From positions 32,001-96,000 of the IMG/VR virus record IMGVR_UViG_3300006947_000003: a DNA stretch of 64,000 nucleotides. One strand, 5' to 3'. The position numbers and the translations under genes were made by a program. Of the stretch, positions 5,940 through 56,371 are shown in pieces; positions within the stretch are counted from its first letter, which is position 1; every line of letters begins with the position of its first letter. This DNA is from a virus. The notes beneath the pieces are model-generated. The model was not told where the DNA came from and made no database searches. It saw nothing but the letters and a program-made list of their open reading frames with translations.

Positions 5940-6768
5940 AAAGTTCTATAAACCTATCATAATTTTTTTCTATTTCAAATTTGTTTAGTAAGTGTATGTT
6001 TGTGTCTTTTAATCTTACAGGTCCTTCAGTTGTATTAATTGTTATACTTCCTTTGTTTATATCTATCACACTTTCGGGCGGGTAACTGTTAATCTGTCTT
6101 GTAGGTAATGGCTTTAACCATCCATCAGTATATCCGTTCATAATATGTGAGGCTATGGCAGCCGTTATATCGTTTCTATAAAATGTATACGGGCTATTAT
6201 ATGTTGTACTATAAAAATCGTTATTTTCTTTGATTTCTTTTGCTAATGTAAACCATTGTTCTGTTTGTTCGCATTTTCTAAAATAACATACAGTAAACCA
6301 ATGTATACTAGGGTAGCCATCTGTGATAACTTTTTCGTAAATGTGTTCTTGTTGTTTTCCGGGAAGTCTACTATTAATATTCATTAGCATAGGTTCAACA
6401 TTTCCCCACACGTTATTTAAAACTGAATTTTGTATTAAGTAGTCACTATCGATTAGTATTGTTTCGTCATATGGTGATAAATCATATGCTAATAACCGAT
6501 CTAAATTATACCAAGTAATTTGTTCACGTTTACCGTTAATTATTACACCTCTGCCATTGACTACTTCGACATTGTCTAAGTATATCACCTTATCCCAAAC
6601 ATCACTAGCATTGTACAATGTATTGTCGTTGTAATCAGCTTCTAGTGTAATTAAGGAAACAGGTATATCAAGAAAATGCTTAGCCATAGTCGCGGCTACT
6701 TCGGCTTGTTTTATGTAATTAAATTGCTCGTTATTTTTAGCAAATATTATTAAGCCTTTAGTCGTCAT
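5932..6768 (-). CDS. Glycosyltransferase, GT8-like (paralogue of 5061..5939)
   Basis: SPYDETILIDSDY (DxD), YRND, HLLNK. Confidence 0.65.
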   Translation of the reverse strand: MTTKGLIIFAKNNEQFNYIKQAEVAATMAKHFLDIPVSLITLEADYNDNTLYNASDVWDKVIYLDNVEVVNGRGVIINGKREQITWYNLDRLLAYDLSPYDETILIDSDYLIQNSVLNNVWGNVEPMLMNINSRLPGKQQEHIYEKVITDGYPSIHWFTVCYFRKCEQTEQWFTLAKEIKENNDFYSTTYNSPYTFYRNDITAAIASHIMNGYTDGWLKPLPTRQINSYPPESVIDINKGSITINTTEGPVRLKDTNIHLLNKFEIEKNYDRFIELYG

Positions 6769-7108
6769 ATGTTAATATCTCTTCCACACTTCTTGCTGTT
6801 ACTATTTTTTGTTGCTCTGCCTGAGCTCTATTTTGTTCTTGAACGTAAGTATCTAATATTAATTTCATAAAAGGTCCAACTTCTATTTCGATTAGATTTT
6901 CATTTCTGTCATCAATGACAGCTTTTTTGTAGTTTTTACGTTCGAGCAAATCTAGTAAGTTTAGCAATGTAGGATTGATATTAAATAATCCGCCGTTATA
7001 ACCGATAGTGAGCCTTTCATTTTTAAGCTCTTTTAGTAGTTGTAATTGGTTATTTTGGACTTGTCGATAATTTGCGTTTTTGAATAATTCTGATGTTTCT
7101 TTGTTCAT
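6758..7108 (-). CDS. Hypothetical phage protein
   Basis: 116-aa ORF, first gene after the sigma70 promoter. Confidence 0.6.
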   Translation of the reverse strand: MNKETSELFKNANYRQVQNNQLQLLKELKNERLTIGYNGGLFNINPTLLNLLDLLERKNYKKAVIDDRNENLIEIEVGPFMKLILDTYVQEQNRAQAEQQKIVTARSVEEILTYDD

Positions 7109-7123
7109 TGAGATATCCTAGAT

Positions 7124-7160
7124 AAAAAAATAGCGAGTAGTTTTTAACACATACTCGCTA
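7124..7160 (-). terminator. Intrinsic terminator after the tail/baseplate operon
   Basis: Minus strand TAGCGAGTA-loop-TACTCGCTA followed by a T7 run. Confidence 0.7.
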
Positions 7161-7161
7161 T

Positions 7162-7190
7162 ATTATAACACGTTAGGACTAAGGTGTCAA
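7162..7190 (-). promoter_or_regulatory. Consensus sigma70 promoter for the glycan island
   Basis: Minus strand TTGACA (7190-7185), 17 nt, TATAAT (7167-7162). Confidence 0.85.
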
Positions 7191-7197
7191 GTCTTTT

Positions 7198-8130
7198 TTA
7201 GAATGATTCTGTTGTTGCCCAACTTGGATATGCGGGTGTATAAACAGTAGACCTTCTTGATGTAAATACTGCGTTTGTACCTGATTCTACTGTATCAACT
7301 GTGCTTGGAGATGTCGCGGCATGTTGATCGTCCCATGTAATTTGAATTGTAACAATTGTGCCATCAGTTTTTGCTTGAACTAATACATCGTTGGCACTAT
7401 AAGCGCCTGAGCCAATGTTTGTTCCTTCAAAAACAGTCGCGTAAGTTGAAGTTAAATCATGGAAGCCAACTGTTGTACTAGGTGTTCCAGCGTTACCAGT
7501 TCTTGTAGTACCAGTGTAACCTATTTTAATAGTACCTATGGAAGTATCAAAAATAGTGTTCCAGTTAGTAGATTGTGTGCTAGTTGCTGTTGGTTGATCA
7601 AACGTCATGTGTAACTCGCCACCCGAGTTGAAAAACGTTCTACAGTGATTAGCATTAGAAAATGTTGACGTAACTGTTGAGTTAATAGATGCTGTGCCAA
7701 CTTCGCCGCCCCAAGCAGTACTTCTTGTTGAAGTGTGCTGTGTTGCTGGAGTTGTTTGTTGTCCTGCGTCTACGTTTTGAAAGTTATTGTCAATGTCTGT
7801 AACCGCTCCACTCAAATTGTATGAGTAAGAAGCACCGCCAATTGTCTGTGTTCCGTCAAATGCGTGTACTGTGCCACTTGTTGCTGGATAACCTGTATCA
7901 CTTCCTCCCGGAATAGTTACTGATGTTCCTTGGTGTGTTGCCGCATTTGTGACCGCCGTTAGTAGCGCCGTCCAGTGTGCCGCTGTAATGCTATCTGTTG
8001 CTGATACTGTTGTTAAGTTTGATTGGTTATAACCTTTAGTGCCCGAACCGACACCTATTACGCCATTTACCGTCGAAACAAAAGCATTGTAATCAGAAGC
8101 AGTTATTGTATTGCTTGTTGAATATGCCAT
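7198..8130 (-). CDS. Virion structural protein (tail/baseplate-associated)
   Basis: Thr/Ser/Gly-rich, MAY start, FFNSGG motif, at the end of the baseplate operon. Confidence 0.6.
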   Translation of the reverse strand: MAYSTSNTITASDYNAFVSTVNGVIGVGSGTKGYNQSNLTTVSATDSITAAHWTALLTAVTNAATHQGTSVTIPGGSDTGYPATSGTVHAFDGTQTIGGASYSYNLSGAVTDIDNNFQNVDAGQQTTPATQHTSTRSTAWGGEVGTASINSTVTSTFSNANHCRTFFNSGGELHMTFDQPTATSTQSTNWNTIFDTSIGTIKIGYTGTTRTGNAGTPSTTVGFHDLTSTYATVFEGTNIGSGAYSANDVLVQAKTDGTIVTIQITWDDQHAATSPSTVDTVESGTNAVFTSRRSTVYTPAYPSWATTESF

Positions 8131-31876: not shown

Positions 31877-34465
31877 TTATCCCACGTTGTTCCAATCTAT
31901 GTCCATTGCCACAGTAACGTCGCCATCAGGAACATTTGTTTTCCAAGCTTCATATCCTGTTGTGCCTGGTTGGATATCTGCATGTATAGTAGATTCGCCT
32001 TCAGGCTCTTTTTCAATTTCTTGATTAGTTACCCGTATTATTTCTAATTCTTGTTTAAATGTGTTATTTTCTATCGTTGTTTTAATTAACGTAATTTTGT
32101 AATAACCACTAAACAAACTAATACTATTTCCATACTCGGTGTCGCCGCTGTGCGTTGCCATTAATCCTGTTTCGGTATCAATGTCAGGCGGCGTCTTAAA
32201 ATTAATTTGAATAGTAGGATCTCGGTGTGTATTAACTGAACCATTTACATACAGTGAATTATTTACTGATAATCCAAATCCCTCGTCTTGTGTGATCCAA
32301 TCCGGGTCACCGACGATTGTTATCTTTCCAGTCATTGCGTCAACACCTTTCGAGTATATCTGCGACATAAAATTCTGGGCCATAACAGTTCGATAATCTG
32401 ATTTACTACCAGCACTCCAATCGTTTTGGTCAGTTCTAGTAAGGCTATAAGCTCTGTGATCAAACACTACATGGCCTTGGGCATCTCCAAATCTATAAAC
32501 TGGAACTATTGAAGTACCTAGGGGTGTTGCGCCTTTGTCGATGGCATTTTCAAGCCCTGACGCATATCCGCCTATCATCTTCTTTTGAAATCCTGCGGCA
32601 CTAAAATCTAAATCAAAATCTAATACATCTTTATTTTGGCCGGTATATATCCAATTGTACTTCTTAACAATATCCGTTGTACCGTACGAAGGTAACGAAT
32701 CTGGAGAATTACCTTTCGATTCGTGTAACGTTATAACATATTTAATTTTTTTCTGGTATTGTCCTCTAGTATTATCCCACTCTCCTACTGTTACAATTGG
32801 TGTTATTTTATAAAGTAAAATCGGTGACTTTTCTGATTCTATTAATTTATACGTTGTTGCAGGATCATTGAACATAGGTCCAGCTTTTGTTTTTTCATAT
32901 CCCGGCTGTACAGTAACCTGGTCAGTCATAAATGAACTAGATGAAATTATGGTATGAATAACATTAACAATTGACACACCAGCGTTTAATTGAATTGATT
33001 TGCTACCCTTTGGGTTAACTGCTGAAATATTGCTTTTATACTGTAGAATTCCTGGTGCATCTAGCTTGCCGGTGTATACAGCGTAATTATTAATATCTAG
33101 AGAATCAGCTTTTAGGATTTTAGCATTTAATAATTTTTTCATGTTTTCGGGGCCGCATCCATTGTCTATCGAAAAAGAATACTCATCCGGGAAATCAGGC
33201 TTTGTTATATTTCTGCCGGCATCTTGGATATTTTCGGTCCATTGTTGATTTATAATATCTGGGAAATCCTTAAAGCCTAAGCCTTTTTTAGCAACTGTAA
33301 CTGTTTTATTTTGATAACCTAATTGAGGTACGCCAAGTTGCGTCACTTGTTGTCTGTTAACATACTGAATACCCTGACTTGTATTATTATCTACAGCATA
33401 TCCTACTTCAGTAATGCCGAAAAAATCAGCTATAGTTTCACAGTTAACTTGTATATCATTTGGCAAAGAACCAGTAGTTTCACTAAATGCCGAATCGGAA
33501 TATTTATACAATGATACATTATACTCTGATCCGTTCTGTGAAACATTGAAGTTAATGTCGCCAATTTTTAACATTAAATATTTTGTGGAATTGTCTAGTG
33601 TTACTGGTCTCCCTGAATCGTCGACGCCTTTAAAACTTATCTTTAACATATAAGGCATTTCAATATACCACTTGCTTTTAAACCCAACTGCCGCTTTTAT
33701 TAAGTTCTCTAATAATGTAGCCCCGTAAGGCTCAGATATTTTCATACTTACGTTAGTTACTTTTGCTCCAGCGTGTGATTTTGTGCCAACATAACTATCA
33801 ATGCTAATATCGTCAATATGATAATTTTTTTGAAAGAATCGATTATGATTAGAATTGCCGCCTGTTAATGTTCGTTGAACACCAGCTGAGCTCATTAATA
33901 ATCTTCCTGGTTTTTTAGCGAAATTAAATGCTAACGTAGAGAAACTATCTGTGGGGTTTGTTGATATTAATGTATCTTGAATGTCATTAAAATCCTCAAA
34001 CGGCATCATATAAAAGTCATATTGAATACTATATGATGCTAGTGTGTGTAATTGATTTGGTCTGATATCTACTCGCTTTTTAGATGTCCCTTTTGCTGTG
34101 GCAGATGCATCTGTGTTTTCAACAATAACTTGATCTTCTACATCGGCCTCTTGCCCAACACCAACCTCAACAGGTGTCGAAACAGCTACAACTGGCGGAG
34201 TAAGAAAGGCTGTACCACCATCTTCATCGTTCAGATGTGTCTTCAGAATTTCGAGCTCGTCCTCAAGAAGTTCAACTCTATCCTCATGATCGACCATCTC
34301 GTCCGCGTCATAATATTTTGTTACGCCATCGGCTTCATATCCACCGAGTACACCGTCTTCCCATAAAAGCTTCGAATCACCTACATTGTTGCCATACTCA
34401 TCTACCGCAATAAAGGCGGCAAGTTCTGCCTCGGATTGCTGAATCTCAAGTTCTATGGGTGTCAT
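31877..34465 (-). CDS. Baseplate hub/tail protein (gp27-like position)
   Basis: N.LH...SY, I.EPYG..L, KKYNWIYTG.N.DV, I.GDP.W, SGYY motifs; upstream of gp5-like gene. Confidence 0.55.
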   Translation of the reverse strand: MTPIELEIQQSEAELAAFIAVDEYGNNVGDSKLLWEDGVLGGYEADGVTKYYDADEMVDHEDRVELLEDELEILKTHLNDEDGGTAFLTPPVVAVSTPVEVGVGQEADVEDQVIVENTDASATAKGTSKKRVDIRPNQLHTLASYSIQYDFYMMPFEDFNDIQDTLISTNPTDSFSTLAFNFAKKPGRLLMSSAGVQRTLTGGNSNHNRFFQKNYHIDDISIDSYVGTKSHAGAKVTNVSMKISEPYGATLLENLIKAAVGFKSKWYIEMPYMLKISFKGVDDSGRPVTLDNSTKYLMLKIGDINFNVSQNGSEYNVSLYKYSDSAFSETTGSLPNDIQVNCETIADFFGITEVGYAVDNNTSQGIQYVNRQQVTQLGVPQLGYQNKTVTVAKKGLGFKDFPDIINQQWTENIQDAGRNITKPDFPDEYSFSIDNGCGPENMKKLLNAKILKADSLDINNYAVYTGKLDAPGILQYKSNISAVNPKGSKSIQLNAGVSIVNVIHTIISSSSFMTDQVTVQPGYEKTKAGPMFNDPATTYKLIESEKSPILLYKITPIVTVGEWDNTRGQYQKKIKYVITLHESKGNSPDSLPSYGTTDIVKKYNWIYTGQNKDVLDFDLDFSAAGFQKKMIGGYASGLENAIDKGATPLGTSIVPVYRFGDAQGHVVFDHRAYSLTRTDQNDWSAGSKSDYRTVMAQNFMSQIYSKGVDAMTGKITIVGDPDWITQDEGFGLSVNNSLYVNGSVNTHRDPTIQINFKTPPDIDTETGLMATHSGDTEYGNSISLFSGYYKITLIKTTIENNTFKQELEIIRVTNQEIEKEPEGESTIHADIQPGTTGYEAWKTNVPDGDVTVAMDIDWNNVG

Positions 34466-43859: not shown

Positions 43860-44039
43860 ATGTCAACATTACACGACCAAATAACAGAAGCATATGTAAA
43901 CTATATTGCAGAAGCAGAAAAGTTTGATACTAAAGGAAATAAAGCCGCGGCGACTAGAGCTCGTAAAGCACTAGGAGATTTATCTAAGCTAGGTAAGTCA
44001 CGTAGAGCCGAAATACAAGAAAAAAAGAACGCTATGTAA
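43860..44039 (+). CDS. Histone H1-like Hc1-family small basic protein, 59 aa
   Basis: Not in ORF track. Hand translation: MSTLHDQITEAYVNYIAEAEKFDTKGNKAAATRARKALGDLSKLGKSRRAEIQEKKNAM. KGNKAA.TRARK is the Hc1 hallmark; strong RBS. Confidence 0.8.
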   Translation: MSTLHDQITEAYVNYIAEAEKFDTKGNKAAATRARKALGDLSKLGKSRRAEIQEKKNAM

Positions 44040-44078
44040 TTAGAGTTCTTTCTTAATTAAGAAAGATAATATTAATTT

Positions 44079-44591
44079 ATGCCAAGCCCACAAAAAGCAA
44101 AAGGATCAGGTTGGGAACGAGATGTCGCAAGATTCTTGTCCGGACTATACGGTGAAACGTTTATAAGAGCACCTGGTTCTGGTGCTTATGTGGGTGGGGT
44201 TAATAAAGCAAGAAAAGAATATTTACACGAAGGCCAAATCAGAGCTTTCAAAGGAGACATTGTACCTGGACAAAGTTTTCCTAAACTAAATGTAGAATGT
44301 AAGTTTTATAAGCAATTCTCATTTCACAGACTGTTACGACCTGAACCACTTCCTCAATTAGAAGAATGGATATCACAACTTATGGATGTAGCAGATCCGG
44401 ACGATTTCAATATGTTAATAATGAAATTCAATCAAGTAGGCAAATACATCGCTATAGAATCAAAATACAAATCAAAATCAAAAAATTACATAGACTATTG
44501 GTCAAACACTACAGGTTCAAACTGGCGTATATCAGACTTTGAAGAATTTTTCACAAGAAATTCAGATTTAGTTAAAACGCTTTGTGCCTAG
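44079..44591 (+). CDS. Holliday junction resolvase (PD-(D/E)xK, Hjc/T5 D14-like)
   Basis: KAKG..WER.VA, R.PGSGA, GD, VECK. Confidence 0.75.
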   Translation: MPSPQKAKGSGWERDVARFLSGLYGETFIRAPGSGAYVGGVNKARKEYLHEGQIRAFKGDIVPGQSFPKLNVECKFYKQFSFHRLLRPEPLPQLEEWISQLMDVADPDDFNMLIMKFNQVGKYIAIESKYKSKSKNYIDYWSNTTGSNWRISDFEEFFTRNSDLVKTLCA

Positions 44592-44603
44592 CATAATATA
44601 CTA

Positions 44604-44655
44604 TTAACAACAACTTTTAATCGCAACTCTTAACCGCAACTCTTAACCGCAACCA
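44604..44655. repeat. Tandem array of four 13-bp units (consensus TTAACCGCAACTC)
   Basis: TTAACAACAACTT, TTAATCGCAACTC, TTAACCGCAACTC, TTAACCGCAACCA. Confidence 0.85.
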
Positions 44656-44659
44656 AATA

Positions 44660-44990
44660 GCTACCTCGAAATCATGCCCTTGAGGGCATACGACATCGTA
44701 TGTTCGGAATCTGGGTTGTAGCAAGTAAAGGCATTTACTTCAAGTGCTAAAAGATAGAGGCTCTGTGAAACAGATACAACCTCAACAATTGATATGTTGG
44801 ATATCTCGGTATATCAAATGTTCCGTGACTAATGTGAAGCTGAAGTAGGGGGTTAGCGGGTCGCCGCCTCCGATAGTAGAAATACTAAATCTTCTTATGA
44901 TATGATGGGTGAGTTACTCGAATGATGAACAATCCTTACTTTGCCCCTAGCGGGTGAAGTATGGGCAAAATATCTGAATGATAAACTAAC
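44660..44990 (+). ncRNA. Candidate large structured non-coding RNA
   Basis: Region without a listed ORF, more GC-rich than its flanks, with at least 8 consecutive stems including a GAAA-tetraloop hairpin. Family not recognised; ends approximate. Confidence 0.55.
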
Positions 44991-45158
44991 TGTATTCCAT
45001 TAATTAAAAAAAAAATGTTTTGAACGACAGTGATAAAACTTATCAACGGAGTTGATAACATTACAATACTTTATTGTTATTATGTTTCTGAAAGCTCTGA
45101 TAAAAATAGTTTGCTAACATATTCTTATTGATTCCATTAATAATACTAAGTGTATCTA

Positions 45159-45395
45159 TTACATTAGTGGAAGTTTTGAGCTCTCAGTATTTTTGATATT
45201 TTGTTTGATTATTTCGTGTATTTGTTCACGTTCAGATGGTGATAGTGCCATAGCTTCGGTATACGATATGCCACCTCGCATATACCAAGTTGTCTCCAAC
45301 AAATCTTTTTGTAAGGCTTTTGACTCATTGTCAAAACTTTGGAGTAATTTGACAATGTTGTCATTGTCTAGTGCCAAAAGCCTTATCCGAAAAAA
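45159..45395 (-). CDS. Tail assembly chaperone C-terminal part, likely reached by -1 frameshift from the upstream gene
   Basis: ORF has only a TTG start with no RBS; its frame stays open back to the slippery T TTT TTC (45395-45389); WYMRGGISY.EA..L...ER motif. Confidence 0.6.
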   Translation of the reverse strand, partial: FFRIRLLALDNDNIVKLLQSFDNESKALQKDLLETTWYMRGGISYTEAMALSPSEREQIHEIIKQNIKNTESSKLPLM

Positions 45396-46309
45396 GTTGA
45401 GTTGTCAATAGTAAACGGTTGCGACCATTTCTCCCCACAAGGGGTATTGACACCTTCTAAATCAGTAGCACCATCACACTCGAATTGAATAGGTTTGATG
45501 GTTGATTGATTCTTATTCTCTTCTAAATGTTCTTTAATACTATTGTATATACTTCGATCACAGTTTGCTACAAATTCTTTTAGTTGTTGCCGATCAGTAA
45601 CAACTGTGCTGTCTGGCAATTCGATTTTAAGAATTGCCTCTGATAAAATACCAACTGAATATACAGTTAATCTAACAAACGCATCTTGAAACTTGTCAAT
45701 ACGATCTTGTTCAGTCATGCCGTCGTCAGTAGCAATACCTTGTATTAGTCGTTGCTGTTCAAAGTTCTTAATAGCTTCTTTAGTAACTGCTTCGTATGTT
45801 AATGGTTGAAAGTATATCTTTAAATCACTAACATTAATTAATGGCTTATATGATGGTACTGTAACCCTCTCTATAATAGTTTTAAGATCTAGTTCAAACT
45901 CGTTTTCTTCGCTACATTTAGGACACACACCTTTAAGTGTTGTTGTTTCGCCATATGTAGCAATTCTAATACTAACAAGAATCATGTCAACATCTAATGC
46001 ACAGACTTTCCAGGCATTTTTAATTCCTGGAATACAACTTTGAATAACTTCAACAGTAGTAGCACCGTTCATTAATGCGTCTGGTGTTCTCATTAGAATT
46101 TCGTCTTTAGCTGTCATTGGATAAACAGCCAATTCTCCGTTAACTGGAATTTCAATTTCATCCGGTGTATTAAATTCACCTTTGCTTGGCAATGAAATAT
46201 AAAGTGCCGGTCTACGAAAATATGCTTGTAATGGATTAACCGGTGTTTCCGGTTTTGTTACCTTAGTTGCCATTTCTGGAACTTTATTATTTGTTTCTAT
46301 AGTACTCAT
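45383..46309 (-). CDS. Baseplate hub assembly/tail chaperone, gp26-like
   Basis: LPSKG, PMTAKDE, D.D..L..IR..TYG, CPKC zinc ribbon, ends FF. Start set at ATG 46309 by a GGAGG RBS. Confidence 0.7.
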   Translation of the reverse strand: MSTIETNNKVPEMATKVTKPETPVNPLQAYFRRPALYISLPSKGEFNTPDEIEIPVNGELAVYPMTAKDEILMRTPDALMNGATTVEVIQSCIPGIKNAWKVCALDVDMILVSIRIATYGETTTLKGVCPKCSEENEFELDLKTIIERVTVPSYKPLINVSDLKIYFQPLTYEAVTKEAIKNFEQQRLIQGIATDDGMTEQDRIDKFQDAFVRLTVYSVGILSEAILKIELPDSTVVTDRQQLKEFVANCDRSIYNSIKEHLEENKNQSTIKPIQFECDGATDLEGVNTPCGEKWSQPFTIDNSTFFG

Positions 46310-46321
46310 GAATTTTCCTCC

Positions 46322-46361
46322 GCTAAATACAATATAATAGTAGTTAGTCATATTATTTATA
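46322..46361. promoter_or_regulatory. Pair of late promoters for the divergent chaperone and tape measure genes
   Basis: Plus GCTAAATA (46322-46329); minus TATAAATA (46361-46354). Confidence 0.55.
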
Positions 46362-46387
46362 TGAGTATATAATGGTGAAATGAAAAC

Positions 46388-49285
46388 ATGGCAATAAGAA
46401 TTAATACAGAAGATAATGAAATTATAGTCAGTGATGTAGCAACAGAAGACACTCTACTGGAACTACTAAAAGCAGTTGAAGGCCTTAAGAAAAAAGGTAA
46501 CAACACTACTGACGCATCGAAACAAGCAAAAAATACCGGCGAAAAACTTGAAAAACTCGCCAAATCTGTAGATAAACAAACAATTACGTTAACTGACTGG
46601 GCTGGAAATATGGATGACGCCTCTGCAGACTTGTCTGCCGATATGGCTGCAAGGAGTAAAGCAGTAGCTGGCGCTTTGGGCAAAGTTGTAAAAAATACAG
46701 GTAATGTAATAAGTGATCTTATAAGAGGCCCGGCTAGTTTTGAATCACTAGGTAGGGCAATTCAGCAAGGTGCTGGGTTCTTAGGTGACGGATTAGGAGC
46801 CGCTGCAGACAGTATATCAGTTTTAGGCACTAAACTGCCAGGTGTAGGTGCTGGACTATCGATGGTTGGTGCCGCCGCAGGCGCGGCCGCAATGGCTATT
46901 GCCGCATATGCTCAAAATATGTATGACGGATTTATAGCATTAAGTCAAAGTGGAGCAAATTACAACGGTGACATAGTTAGGACAGCTGGCCAGGTACAGG
47001 GGTTAGGCATAACAATGAATGCCTTTACTCAGATTGTTCAACAAAATGCAGCCGGACTAGCAAACTTTGGCGGAACAGTTTCAGCTGGTGCCAAACGATT
47101 TGTAGAATTAGCAGATGTAATGCATGGGAAATTTGGTGGTGAGCTGTATGCTTTAGGTATCACATTTGACGAACAAGCAGAGCAAATGGCTAAGTTTACT
47201 CAAACACAATCGAGAAATACAAATTTTCAAAATTTGAGTTATGCTCAACAAAGTGTTCTCTTTAAAGATTATATAACAGACTTAACTAAGTTAACAGGAC
47301 TCACAGGCAAGAGCAGACAGCAACTATCAGAAGAACTAGCACAGAACGATTTAAGAGCTGATGCTAATTTGCGATTGGGTGGTGCTACAGTTGAGGCACG
47401 AAAAGCATTGGAAATGGCATTTAGTGCCTCAGGCGGACAAGATTCGGCCATTTCACAATTGTTAATGGCAGGTATTGCAGGTAAAGATTTAGCCCAAGAA
47501 ATGGCCGCTGGCAACACAACAATTAAGAATTTTGTAGCTGGTAACAGTGAAGCGGCTAAAAAGATACGCGACTTAGGTGATGCTGTAGCAACAGGAAAAA
47601 TAACACAAGACGAATTTCACAAGCAAATGGCCGCTATAACACCGGCTATTGAACGAAGTGGCAAAGAATTTCAATCATTATACGGTATAAATGATGTTGC
47701 TACTACTATGACAGAAGCAGGTTCTAGTGTTCAGAAGTATAATGTTCAAATTGAACAACTAAGGAAAGCAGAAGCTGATGGAATAGACACTACAACTAAA
47801 TCAGCAGAAGGCGCCGGTGGTGCCATTATGGACCTTTCTGCACAGTTAGTATCAGCTACATCTAGTATTAAGTCTGGTGTTAATACTGGAATAGCAGATT
47901 TTGTTGAATCTATGGGTTTCTCAGATGCTAAAGACTTAGGCGCCAAAATTCAAGGTAGTATTGATAAGTTTGGCACGATGGCTGACTTAATAATTGACGC
48001 ATTTTCGGACTTTTACACACAGTTTAGTATAGTTGCCGCGGCACCGTGGGACTACTTATTAGGTGGCACAAGTACAAAAGAATTACGAAGCCAAGCATCA
48101 GGGCATATAGAGAGATTGGGATTAGGCGACACTATAACCCCGGACTTTATTAGCAGTTTGTCAGGTGAGGATGCTACAGCATTAATAAAAGGCTCCCTTC
48201 AGGGTAAAGACCAAGCGTTAGCGACCTACGAAGCCATTAAAACACGAAAAGGCGAGGAAATTGCAGTAGAGAAAGAAGAGATCGTTAAGGCTTCAACTCT
48301 GGGTAACGTAGAAACTGATAGCAATACTCTTACTACAGAGCAAATAGAAGCTGACCTCAATCTGAAGAAAACAGGTAACGTTGACGCTAACGGAACTTCT
48401 GCTACTACGGGTAACGTTGCCACTTCAGGAAGTGAAGTTACTTTAGAAGCTGACCTCAATCTGAAGAAAACAGGTAACGTTGACGCTAAAGGAACTTCTG
48501 CTACTACGGGTAACGTTGCCACTTCAGGAAGTGAAGTTACTTCTTCTACACCTTCGTTTAACGCTGATAGTTATAGTGATTTGTTTAGTCAGAAACCTCT
48601 AGAAAATGGTGTAATATTACCAAACGGTAATATTCAAATGGAAGCATACGGTCACGATTCGCCTATAGCTTCTATGCTAACTCAGTGGTCTAATGCTACT
48701 AACGGCTTAGGTACCGGATCGGCGTACCAATATGCCGCACATCAGTTTGCAAATAATGTATCAGATTTGATGGGAGACAATGACGGTATAATGCCTGACA
48801 GCATGTCAGCAACAATCGCCGAAATGCAGAAAATATTTAATACAAACGACATTGGATTAGCGGCTGACGGATTTGAAGGAATGCTAGGAAAGAGCGGCAA
48901 GCTACAAGACTTGTGGCACATACGGTCGATGATAAACAACAGAATATCAAGTAACGGCCTAACTCCACCGTTTAAGCAATATGGCGGAGCTGTCGGAATG
49001 GGCAATCCATATATTGTTGGCGAGCGTGGCTCTGAATTATTTACACCAAGCGCCGGCGGCACTATAACACCTAATGAGGAACTGTCAACAGCACAACATT
49101 CTGAAAATATATATAAAGCCTTAAAAGAAAGCAATAAAATTAATGAAGGAATAGAAAATAAAATATCTAAAAATGCTGAATTATATGCTAGTCTTACTAG
49201 CGAACAAATTGATAAGTTAAATACGTTAATTAAATTAACTACAACAGGAAACAAGATAGCAAATACGATATCAGCTAATTCGTAG
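46388..49285 (+). CDS. Tape measure protein-like
   Basis: 965 aa, Ala/Gly-rich helical; C-terminal GG.V....YIVGERGSELF.P...G.I.PN motif typical of tape measure proteins. Confidence 0.7.
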   Translation: MAIRINTEDNEIIVSDVATEDTLLELLKAVEGLKKKGNNTTDASKQAKNTGEKLEKLAKSVDKQTITLTDWAGNMDDASADLSADMAARSKAVAGALGKVVKNTGNVISDLIRGPASFESLGRAIQQGAGFLGDGLGAAADSISVLGTKLPGVGAGLSMVGAAAGAAAMAIAAYAQNMYDGFIALSQSGANYNGDIVRTAGQVQGLGITMNAFTQIVQQNAAGLANFGGTVSAGAKRFVELADVMHGKFGGELYALGITFDEQAEQMAKFTQTQSRNTNFQNLSYAQQSVLFKDYITDLTKLTGLTGKSRQQLSEELAQNDLRADANLRLGGATVEARKALEMAFSASGGQDSAISQLLMAGIAGKDLAQEMAAGNTTIKNFVAGNSEAAKKIRDLGDAVATGKITQDEFHKQMAAITPAIERSGKEFQSLYGINDVATTMTEAGSSVQKYNVQIEQLRKAEADGIDTTTKSAEGAGGAIMDLSAQLVSATSSIKSGVNTGIADFVESMGFSDAKDLGAKIQGSIDKFGTMADLIIDAFSDFYTQFSIVAAAPWDYLLGGTSTKELRSQASGHIERLGLGDTITPDFISSLSGEDATALIKGSLQGKDQALATYEAIKTRKGEEIAVEKEEIVKASTLGNVETDSNTLTTEQIEADLNLKKTGNVDANGTSATTGNVATSGSEVTLEADLNLKKTGNVDAKGTSATTGNVATSGSEVTSSTPSFNADSYSDLFSQKPLENGVILPNGNIQMEAYGHDSPIASMLTQWSNATNGLGTGSAYQYAAHQFANNVSDLMGDNDGIMPDSMSATIAEMQKIFNTNDIGLAADGFEGMLGKSGKLQDLWHIRSMINNRISSNGLTPPFKQYGGAVGMGNPYIVGERGSELFTPSAGGTITPNEELSTAQHSENIYKALKESNKINEGIENKISKNAELYASLTSEQIDKLNTLIKLTTTGNKIANTISANS
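48345..48542 (+). repeat. 99-bp (33-aa) in-frame tandem duplication
   Basis: Units start at 48345 and 48444 and differ at one base (gctaac vs gctaaa). Confidence 0.9.
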
Positions 49286-55901: not shown

Positions 55902-55993
55902 ATACTATTGTCGTAAATCGTGCTACAATAGGTGTAGACTTATGCGGAATTGACCCACCGCGTATTACATAGAACGTAACTTAGGAGAAAAAA
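55897..55993 (+). promoter_or_regulatory. Late promoter plus structured ~85-nt leader
   Basis: GATAAATA (55897-55904); hairpins CTACA/TGTAG and TATGCGG/CCGCGTA; AGGAG RBS. Confidence 0.5.
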
Positions 55994-56371
55994 ATGGGAC
56001 GTCCAGTAAATAAAAGTAAATTTGGTGAAGTAGATTCTGATTCAGGCAACATCACAGTTAACTGTAAAGTTAGCTCAAATGCGGCTTCAGTTCAGGGTAT
56101 GATTAAATCACAAAGATCATCTACAAAATTCAATGTTGATGATGCAAAAGATGATTCAGGTAACGAAGGTGTTTGTTCACTAGTTGATAAAGCATCTGAG
56201 CAATTAGCGGCAGATGAAATGTCTATTTCTGCTGTAATTAACGGTACTACAACTTATAAAAATATTAAAAAGTTGTTTAACAGAACGTGTACTGATTATG
56301 ATAATGTACGATACACATGGTCCATATCAGATGACTCTGCTGTTAATGTTATGACGATTGTTGCTATCTAA
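55994..56371 (+). CDS. Probable virion (head-associated) protein
   Basis: MGRP..K..FG start, strong RBS, capsid-like codon choice, own promoter and terminator. Confidence 0.5.
   Translation: MGRPVNKSKFGEVDSDSGNITVNCKVSSNAASVQGMIKSQRSSTKFNVDDAKDDSGNEGVCSLVDKASEQLAADEMSISAVINGTTTYKNIKKLFNRTCTDYDNVRYTWSISDDSAVNVMTIVAI

Follow-up and report, generated by a model that had tools for sequence, protein, structure and literature searches.

What occupies the largest gap in a stretch of jumbo-phage DNA that is otherwise packed with genes? We analysed a 64,000-nt window, positions 32,001 to 96,000 of the IMG/VR virus record IMGVR_UViG_3300006947_000003 (122,450 bases; CheckV completeness 34%). In it, 567 nt separate the end of a PDDEXK nuclease gene (44591) from the end of the next open reading frame (ORF), which lies on the minus strand (45159). 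An earlier note on this DNA had placed a large structured RNA in this gap. We find that 44656-44990, on the plus strand, is very probably a real structured RNA gene, one of a family that sits at the baseplate-hub locus of jumbo phages. The family belongs to RaK2/XaC1-like jumbo myoviruses, mostly uncultured and aquatic, and is carried by hundreds of phages, at least two of them cultured.

The gap is free of genes, as the earlier note had described it. Neither the ORF calls nor a direct reading found an open frame across 44651-45000, where stops occur in six of six frames. The stops in all six frames, together with linkers of variable length, indicate that 44656-44990 is not coding.

Conservation at the baseplate-hub locus

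The RNA is conserved among loci related through the hub protein. Two sets of 80 loci each were fetched from IMG/VR, one around relatives of the hub protein and one around relatives of the PDDEXK protein. A single-sequence nhmmer search recovered the element in 59 of these 160 loci, the window's own excluded. The gap is ~80-83% identical to those of six close relatives, and ~70% identical over 240 nt to many distant loci, whose hub proteins are 36-41% identical. A search profile built from 34 unique homologues matches 64 of the 80 loci fetched with the hub protein (of the 16 without a match, many end early downstream) and only 7 of the 80 PDDEXK-derived loci.

A search blind to the neighbouring genes gave a similar picture. 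A degenerate DNA pattern drawn from two conserved blocks found at least 119 further stretches, and 115 of 119 carry a profile match, this and the following counts for pattern-found loci being among the matches listed. A hub homologue lies downstream, in convergent orientation, in 73 of the 77 testable loci, at a median distance of 1080 nt. In the other 42 of the 115 RNA loci, the flank is too short (38) or extends at least 2.5 kb without a hub gene (4). The PDDEXK gene accompanies only 15 of the 115. Altogether, at least 187 profile matches in 285 loci yielded 111 unique full-length sequences, which reduce to 82 representatives at 95% identity. These 82 were aligned with MAFFT, and the alignment (A1) was not fitted to structure. 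Profile and covariance-model matches stop at 44990-93. When the pattern was run on genome contigs, none of the 120 listed stretches passed the profile, a result that is uninformative on bacterial hosts or on a Polynucleobacter instance.

Covariation and the fold

The conserved sequences share a knotted fold that is maintained by compensatory change. Helices were read from A1 by mutual information and pair counts and then counted formally, against slid controls in which the 3' partners were moved by 1-3 columns. Across 45 proposed pairs in 10 helices (two pseudoknots included), 90.7% of 3488 cells are paired, a percentage inflated by the choice of the structure on the same alignment that was used for counting, versus 40.8-53.6% in the slid controls. 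Both sides change in 36 of the 45 pairs, with 774 double-change cells versus 123-185, and the covariation score is 0.541 versus at most 0.120. None of 500 shuffles reaches any of these measures. Despite the shared alignment, the margin over the slid controls is large. Covariation among homologues, which the earlier note had looked to as a check, is therefore strong over the 82 sequences.

The architecture consists of a stem-enclosed 5' domain, a core of six nested helices and two pseudoknots, and two box units flanking a hairpin. The parts, in window coordinates, are as follows.

44656-44722, plus strand: 5' domain, outer stem GCUAC/GUAGC around the hairpins CCC-UUGA-GGG and ACG-ACAU-CGU
44730-44748, plus strand: hairpin GGCA/UGCU, 5' of a conserved AAAAGAU; GUGC/GCAC, AAGC/GCUU and GGCC/GGCU in relatives, by eye
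44757-60/44780-83, plus strand: helix Pa, GAGG/CCUC, 95.9% paired, both-side changes in 3 of 4 pairs
44784-98/44808-22, plus strand: long hairpin Pb, from the formal pair count
44801-05 with 44899-903, plus strand: long-range pseudoknot of the Pb loop, AUAUC, with GAUAU; both sides change in 3 of 3 aligned columns
44825-30/44859-64, plus strand: pseudoknot S1, GUGACU/GGUCGC, 91.7% paired, 5 of 6 pairs compensatory
44842-45/44891-94, plus strand: helix Px, GAAG/CUUC, enclosing Py and a variable hairpin (44874-87); all 4 pairs compensatory
44848-52/44867-71, plus strand: helix Py, GGGGG/CCUCC, 99.8% paired
44905-44929, plus strand: box A unit, AUGGG..CUC and word, the first GAAUGAU at 44920-26
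44939-46/44952-59, plus strand: hairpin Pe, CUUUGCCC/GGGUGAAG, between both boxes, 89.6% paired, 4 of 7 pairs compensatory
44961-44990, plus strand: box B unit, AUGGG..UCU and word, with the second GAAUGAU (44976-82); end of the conserved core near 44990

Compensatory changes in the 5' domain were read in four close relatives and stand outside the formal count. Pa closes a near-invariant loop, GCUCUGUGAAAcAGAUACAAC, the almost invariant stretch being GCUCUGUGAAAnAGAUACAAC. S1 is a pseudoknot because its 3' strand falls in the Py loop. Px and its partner helices (6, 7 and 9 of the count), found by mutual information, are 96-98% paired, and all three pairs of the variable hairpin at 44874-87 are compensatory. 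Read by eye, the pairing of the Pb loop recurs elsewhere with other letters: CUAGAAU/AUUCUAG in locus L031, CUUGACA/UGUCAAG in L009, UUAGCG/CGCUAA in L013 and CAGACCA/UGGUCUG in L099. All core helices (Pa, Pb, Px, Py and Pe) and both pseudoknots can form in the window. The core covariance model, R1, scores the window at 200.2 bits (E 1.6e-62, model positions 1-249), the window itself being a training row, and finds one copy in the window's record.

The RNA is read from the plus strand. In five columns G-U outnumbers every other pair (76, 73, 59, 58 and 40 of 81 rows), and these columns would become C-A mismatches on the other strand. The earlier note had favoured the same strand from G-U pairs in the single sequence.

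Most of the stems that the earlier note had drawn survive comparison: seven of nine are kept, one of them invariant in close relatives, and two are not supported. The outer stem GCTAC/GTAGC (44660-64/44718-22) becomes GGUAC/GUACC in L003 and L002, and TACGA..TCGTA becomes CACGG/CCGUG and UACAG/CUGUA. Compensatory pairs support GAGG..CCTC (Pa, above), the long hairpin AACAATTGATAT/ATATCAAATGTT (12 of 13 pairs), GGGGG/CCTCC (2 of 5), TAGTA-GAAA-TACTA (3 of 3) and the 3' stem at 44939-59 (Pe, above). The hairpin ATGCCC-TTGA-GGGCAT is invariant in close relatives. The GUCGC of the proposed GCGG-GTCG-CCGC hairpin pairs instead with the upstream GUGAC to form S1, and AAGTAAA/TTTACTT is lost in relatives, where a GGCA/UGCU hairpin (44730-33/44745-48) is kept instead, as judged by eye.

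Twin words

Each molecule carries the same short word twice. In the window, GAAUGAU stands at 44920-26 (..CUC-word-GA) and at 44976-82 (..UCU-word-AA), flanking Pe. Over the 82 sequences the consensus is NNAURAU, and the four variable positions are identical from box to box in 99%, 100%, 100% and 90% of sequences. Between boxes, the triplet that precedes the word varies by transitions only (CUC versus UCU). Word columns covary only with each other (mutual information 0.86-1.25, versus 0.19-0.53 for the next best columns).

Searches for a complementary partner of the word were negative. An 11-nt, wobble-tolerant complement, sought in each locus, occurs at one site in 66 loci, and the 122-kb record has no site at 10-11 nt. 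Within the RNA and 150 nt on either side, an 8-nt complement is present in 7 of 80 cases versus a control of 10.65 +- 2.0. Additional same-sense copies in the flanks number 114 versus a control of 121 +- 12. Local Watson-Crick hairpins within the boxes form no consistent helix in the alignment columns.

Diverged copies of the RNA occur in cultured phages. By tblastn, the closest cultured hub proteins are those of the jumbo myoviruses Atu_ph07, Phosso, PA5oct, XaC1 and RaK2 (26-34% identity). The gap, like a marine homologue of it, finds nothing in cultured phages by blastn at a distant setting. At the five cultured hub loci, the nhmmer profile gives only a marginal match in PA5oct (E 0.015), and the unfiltered covariance model is significant in XaC1 alone. 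The whole genomes of PA5oct, Atu_ph07 and Phosso hold no R1 match at E<=0.01, which is no proof of absence. The Xanthomonas phage XaC1 (OR258281.1) has four copies, at ~15.2, 49.1, 117.7 and 209.4 kb. A divergent one adjoins the hub locus (19 bits; E 4.7e-5 in a search of 44 kb), and those at ~15.2, 49.1 and 117.7 kb occupy large unannotated gaps (17.5-20 bits). The Klebsiella phage RaK2 (NC_019526.1) has one R1 match, at 7155-7345 (32.6 bits), away from the hub. These XaC1 and RaK2 scores are modest, and each copy retains S1, Py and Px with different compensating letters. An HNH endonuclease gene and an rI.-1-like gene flank both the RaK2 copy and one XaC1 copy. On the opposite strand, a hypothetical RaK2 gene, ORF014w (6672-7325, minus), overlaps the R1 match and may be a mis-call over the RNA gene.

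The words of these copies match inside each molecule and differ between molecules. XaC1 has GCGUCAA twice in three copies and ACGUCAA twice in the fourth; the twin word of RaK2 is 19 nt long. The IMG/VR record G002 (85% complete) has two copies of the RNA; the doubled word is AGAUGAA in the first and GCAUGAA in the second. Since paralogue words differ yet match inside each copy, word identity is a within-molecule constraint and not one set by a genome-wide partner. Identity within molecules and variation between them is a signature that standard structure tools overlook, and it may point to an unfamiliar mechanism.

Relation to known RNA families

The RNA in the window matches no family in Rfam. 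Rfam 15 at gathering scores, run on the whole window, returned nothing on the candidate, and 4227 Rfam families at E<=10 gave no match in 44400-45400. ARAGORN found neither tRNA nor tmRNA in the window. The Rfam scan, a check that the earlier note had proposed, thus finds no family here even at E<=10, and together with ARAGORN it agrees with the note's remark that RNase P, tmRNA and group I/II cores are not to be seen. The suggestion of a new or divergent large phage non-coding RNA is likewise supported, by the lack of an Rfam match and by the strong covariation. Its novelty is qualified by a catalogued family in relatives.

That family is Polynucleobacter-1 (RF01718), 141 nt long, which scores 98-117 bits in eight relatives (L013, L018, L037, L010, L020, L026, L028 and L052; 3 of 15 loci in a first search and 7 of 7 in a second, with L018 and L037 in both). 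A 2010 listing, which gives Burkholderiales and fresh water or estuary as its sources, rates it a probable RNA and probably cis-regulatory (Weinberg et al., PMC2864571). Rfam types it as an sRNA gene; here it is carried by jumbo phages. In the freshwater subclade, RF01718 directly precedes a homologue of 44745-44990, shares its strand and occupies the same position with respect to the hub gene. Its 3' half (outer stem, CC-UUAA-GG hairpin and second hairpin) aligns with the 5' domain of the window, where ATGCCC-TTGA-GGGCAT matches the CC-UUAA-GG hairpin at the corresponding position. From this MAFFT alignment we infer that the window's 5' domain is homologous to the 3' half of RF01718. However, the window has no RF01718 match at the gathering score (37 bits) or at E<=10. 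The RF01718 consensus has three 5' hairpins, whereas window 44660-44722 resembles only the outer stem with its two enclosed hairpins, and the first ~80 model positions have no counterpart there. The model also omits the ~250-nt core, with its two pseudoknots and twin words. The family is thus partly catalogued, through its 5' part in relatives. The ~250-nt knotted core is not in Rfam, and by the Rfam model the window is no member of RF01718.

Another kind of sequence precedes the core in part of the family. About 28 of 77 relatives share the words GAGAACA, AGAGAAAUACU and GUAUUAGAAUC at 60-300 nt before it. This looks like a third, longer type of 5' domain, and the 5' part of the family looks modular.

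The RNA invites comparison with GOLLD and ROOL. It is similarly a large, intricate, phage-carried RNA found by comparative genomics. GOLLD and ROOL are 500-800 nt long, whereas the RNA in the window is ~340 nt and has no Rfam match to either. To our knowledge, twin words are not a described feature of GOLLD or ROOL; and the window RNA gives no sign of multimeric cages. Both are large ornate RNAs that phages and prophages often carry (cryo-EM preprint 10.1101/2024.12.08.627333). The same IMG/VR collection has also been mined for candidate structured RNAs, on evidence of the same type: covariation within intergenic stretches of phage contigs (Comput Struct Biotechnol J 2023, PMC10690425). The models described there span 29-151 nt and could at best be fragments of a ~340-nt RNA; the main text of that paper has no occurrence of "baseplate", "jumbo" or "Polynucleobacter".

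Possible functions

The RNA may act in trans. It would then be a folded particle and, most likely, the RNA component or scaffold of a ribonucleoprotein. This suggestion comes from the fact that lineages differ in the genes upstream and downstream but retain the RNA beside the hub operon, and from the persistence of the RNA as diverged paralogues. Taken by itself, the scaffold role is tentative. For the broader description, a stand-alone ~340-nt non-coding RNA gene read as a trans-acting scaffold, we lean modestly in favour. Large, multiply knotted RNAs kept over hundreds of genomes are few, and those that are understood are ribozymes, riboswitches and ribonucleoprotein cores. Here an entire branch of jumbo phages retains such an RNA, in some genomes as several diverged copies, and the catalogued fragment of it bears a misleading bacterial name. 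The copies in the cultured phages XaC1 and RaK2 make its function open to phage genetics and RNA sequencing.

The twin words would be the working sites of such a particle. The identity demanded inside each molecule suggests sites that touch or are equivalent: the words might contact each other, or might be the two ends of one homology-guided step, either two equivalent cuts or a strand transfer. It is a rather doubtful proposal that they touch directly, through a short parallel like-with-like pairing, or are the points where a homology-guided strand transfer or double cut takes off and lands, with removal of the Pe hairpin. The proposal draws on the purely mutual covariation of the words, on the lack of a complement in the RNA, its flanks and the 122-kb record, and on the match of paralogue words within each copy. 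If true, like-with-like words would be a new kind of RNA device, in which sites must be the same and not complementary.

Several observations weigh against the scaffold reading, or against the RNA gene itself. The single-sequence fold is no stabler than shuffles on either strand: 44640-45000 folds at -87.6 kcal/mol (z -0.08), 43 of 100 dinucleotide shuffles are equally good, and the minus strand has z -0.14 against such shuffles. The earlier note had named a folding energy no better than that of shuffles as grounds for doubt. This doubt holds for the energy, and the strong covariation among homologues outweighs it, so the evidence for a structured RNA is comparative, not thermodynamic. The paired percentage is inflated, as said, by counting on the alignment from which the structure was chosen. 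A homologous co-oriented gene begins 140-460 nt 3' of the RNA in ~16 of 68 representatives, and each XaC1 copy has a co-oriented gene 180-270 nt downstream; both would fit a leader. No sigma-70-like promoter was called upstream, no intrinsic terminator was called, and the T4-type late-promoter words TATAAATA, ATAAATA and TATAAAT occur in the 450 nt upstream of 0 of 77 relatives. Support from expression is thin. Six metatranscriptomic runs contain part of 44000-46400, and four were examined at contig level. One of these four RNA libraries has a 395-nt contig that equals 44596-44990 exactly, with no differences, at depth 3.5; the other three have contigs on neighbouring genes only, at depth 2-6, so they are not evidence of silence. 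The contigs come without ends or strand and RNA libraries may hold DNA, so the exact match is a hint of transcription.

A cis-acting leader or riboswitch-like element for a co-oriented downstream gene appears improbable. Polynucleobacter-1 was classed as probably cis-regulatory (Weinberg et al. 2010, PMC2864571), and the knotted fold with invariant loops resembles an aptamer. The genes after the four XaC1 copies and in the ~16 of 68 representatives are also placed as a leader would require. However, the window and the marine L205-type clade have no co-oriented gene after the RNA, the next ORF being convergent in both. The genes after the XaC1 copies are mutually unrelated, and the ORFs 3' of the RNA vary among the remaining lineages; in a search for a downstream partner gene, 0 of 10 checked had a Pfam match above cut-off. 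Known riboswitch aptamers are, moreover, much smaller than ~340 nt.

An RNA-primed replication origin, which the earlier note had offered as an option, also seems unlikely. The transcript would persist as an R-loop or primer, and the upstream repeats would be iterons. Recombination and replication genes are nearby (resolvase-type nucleases here; gp46/47, endonuclease VII and RNase HI in cultured relatives), and a 13-nt tandem repeat of 4.2 copies lies directly upstream, with short repeats upstream in several lineages. Homology-guided realignment of a primer would need identical direct words. Yet the cumulative GC-skew minimum, at ~66-68 kb of the 122-kb record, is ~10 kb from the RNA at 76.7 kb, where the skew does not turn, and lends the option no support, although this is weak evidence, the skew mostly tracking gene strand. 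Transcription at the locus converges and does not diverge, the four dispersed XaC1 copies and the RaK2 copy away from the hub would imply many origins, and two covarying pseudoknots exceed the needs of a primer. The upstream repeats, too, differ in sequence, and a TRF repeat is near the RNA in only 31 of 82 representatives, ~23 of them with it upstream.

Proximity to nucleases and to virion genes suggests two further roles. The RNA could serve a mobile nuclease gene as guide or maintenance element, with both moving or acting together: a PDDEXK_15 gene lies upstream in the window, the RaK2 copy and one XaC1 copy have an HNH endonuclease gene upstream, Endonuclease VII stands beside the XaC1 hub-locus copy, and matching twin words recall recombination or target sites. 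We consider this very unlikely. The nuclease families differ (PDDEXK, HNH and Endo VII), PDDEXK is found with only 15 of the 115 RNAs, two XaC1 copies have no annotated nuclease neighbour, and the complement of the word is absent from the flanks and the 122-kb record. Free-standing homing nucleases also commonly occupy the intergenic gaps of T4-like phages. An RNA of virion assembly or packaging, by analogy with phi29 pRNA, would be kept near the hub and portal genes for joint work. The hub-operon synteny in 73 of 77 testable loci would suit it, as would a portal gene within 4 kb of the hub gene in cultured relatives. This seems scarcely probable: XaC1, RaK2 and G002 have extra copies at other genomic sites, no late-promoter word precedes the RNA in the 77 relatives, and no pair of complementary loops that could form a ring was seen. 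Against all of these, a trans-acting ribonucleoprotein scaffold is the reading that we prefer.

Flanking signals

Two elements border the RNA.

44600-44653, strand not assigned: 13-nt tandem repeat ACTCTTAACCGCA, 4.2 copies (TRF), directly upstream of the RNA
45017-39 and 45040-58, minus strand: two adjacent hairpins, GUUUU/AAAAC and UUAUCAAC/GUUGAUAA, with compensatory changes in four close relatives

The 13-nt repeat is possibly a promoter-proximal or protein-binding array, and its membership in the RNA gene is uncertain. Short A/C-rich repeats of 9-13 nt also precede the RNA in several lineages, for example L003 (12 nt, 3.8 copies), L034 and L244. The TRF count given above takes in repeats up to a few hundred bases away from the RNA; of the upstream ones, only some adjoin it. 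The two hairpins are followed on the minus strand by a run of ten T, on which a simple terminator scan made no call. Equivalents of this module, with a GARCGAAAGYGA-type loop and a GAA/GGA triloop, occur in L084, L082, L087 and L086. The hairpins probably lie outside the RNA and serve as the terminator of the convergent hub operon.

Neighbouring genes and other elements

Three genes adjoin the gap.

44079-44591, plus strand: PDDEXK_15 nuclease gene, the 5' neighbour of the RNA
45159-45377, minus strand: conserved 72-aa ORF with a TTG start, directly after the hub gene
45383-46351, minus strand: baseplate-hub gene (Pfam T4_baseplate, E 2.2e-12)

By tblastn, almost every fetched locus has the 72-aa ORF, Atu_ph07 and Phosso among them, and always directly after the hub gene. 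The co-oriented genes downstream of the RNA in ~16 of 68 representatives (L239, L256, L268, L033 and L197 among them) encode proteins of 170-410 aa that share an N-terminus and have no Pfam match.

R1 finds no match in 73 of 74 PDDEXK-derived loci. Some of these (L104:4496-5057, L092, L120, L155 and L089) have a different conserved non-coding element, in a ~560-nt gap between the PDDEXK gene and a small ORF. By eye, this element shares with the RNA loci a CCUUGAG, near its 5' end, and the downstream two-hairpin module. It may represent a second class of RNA, or else a very remote member of the family.

Elsewhere in the window, a 59-aa ORF at 43860-44039 (plus strand) matches Pfam Hc1, a chlamydial histone H1-like protein (E 2.2e-13), which is unusual phage cargo. 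A freshwater-2 RNA (RF02980) at 55922-55996 (plus strand; 55.4 bits versus a gathering score of 49.9) is the sole Rfam match in the window.

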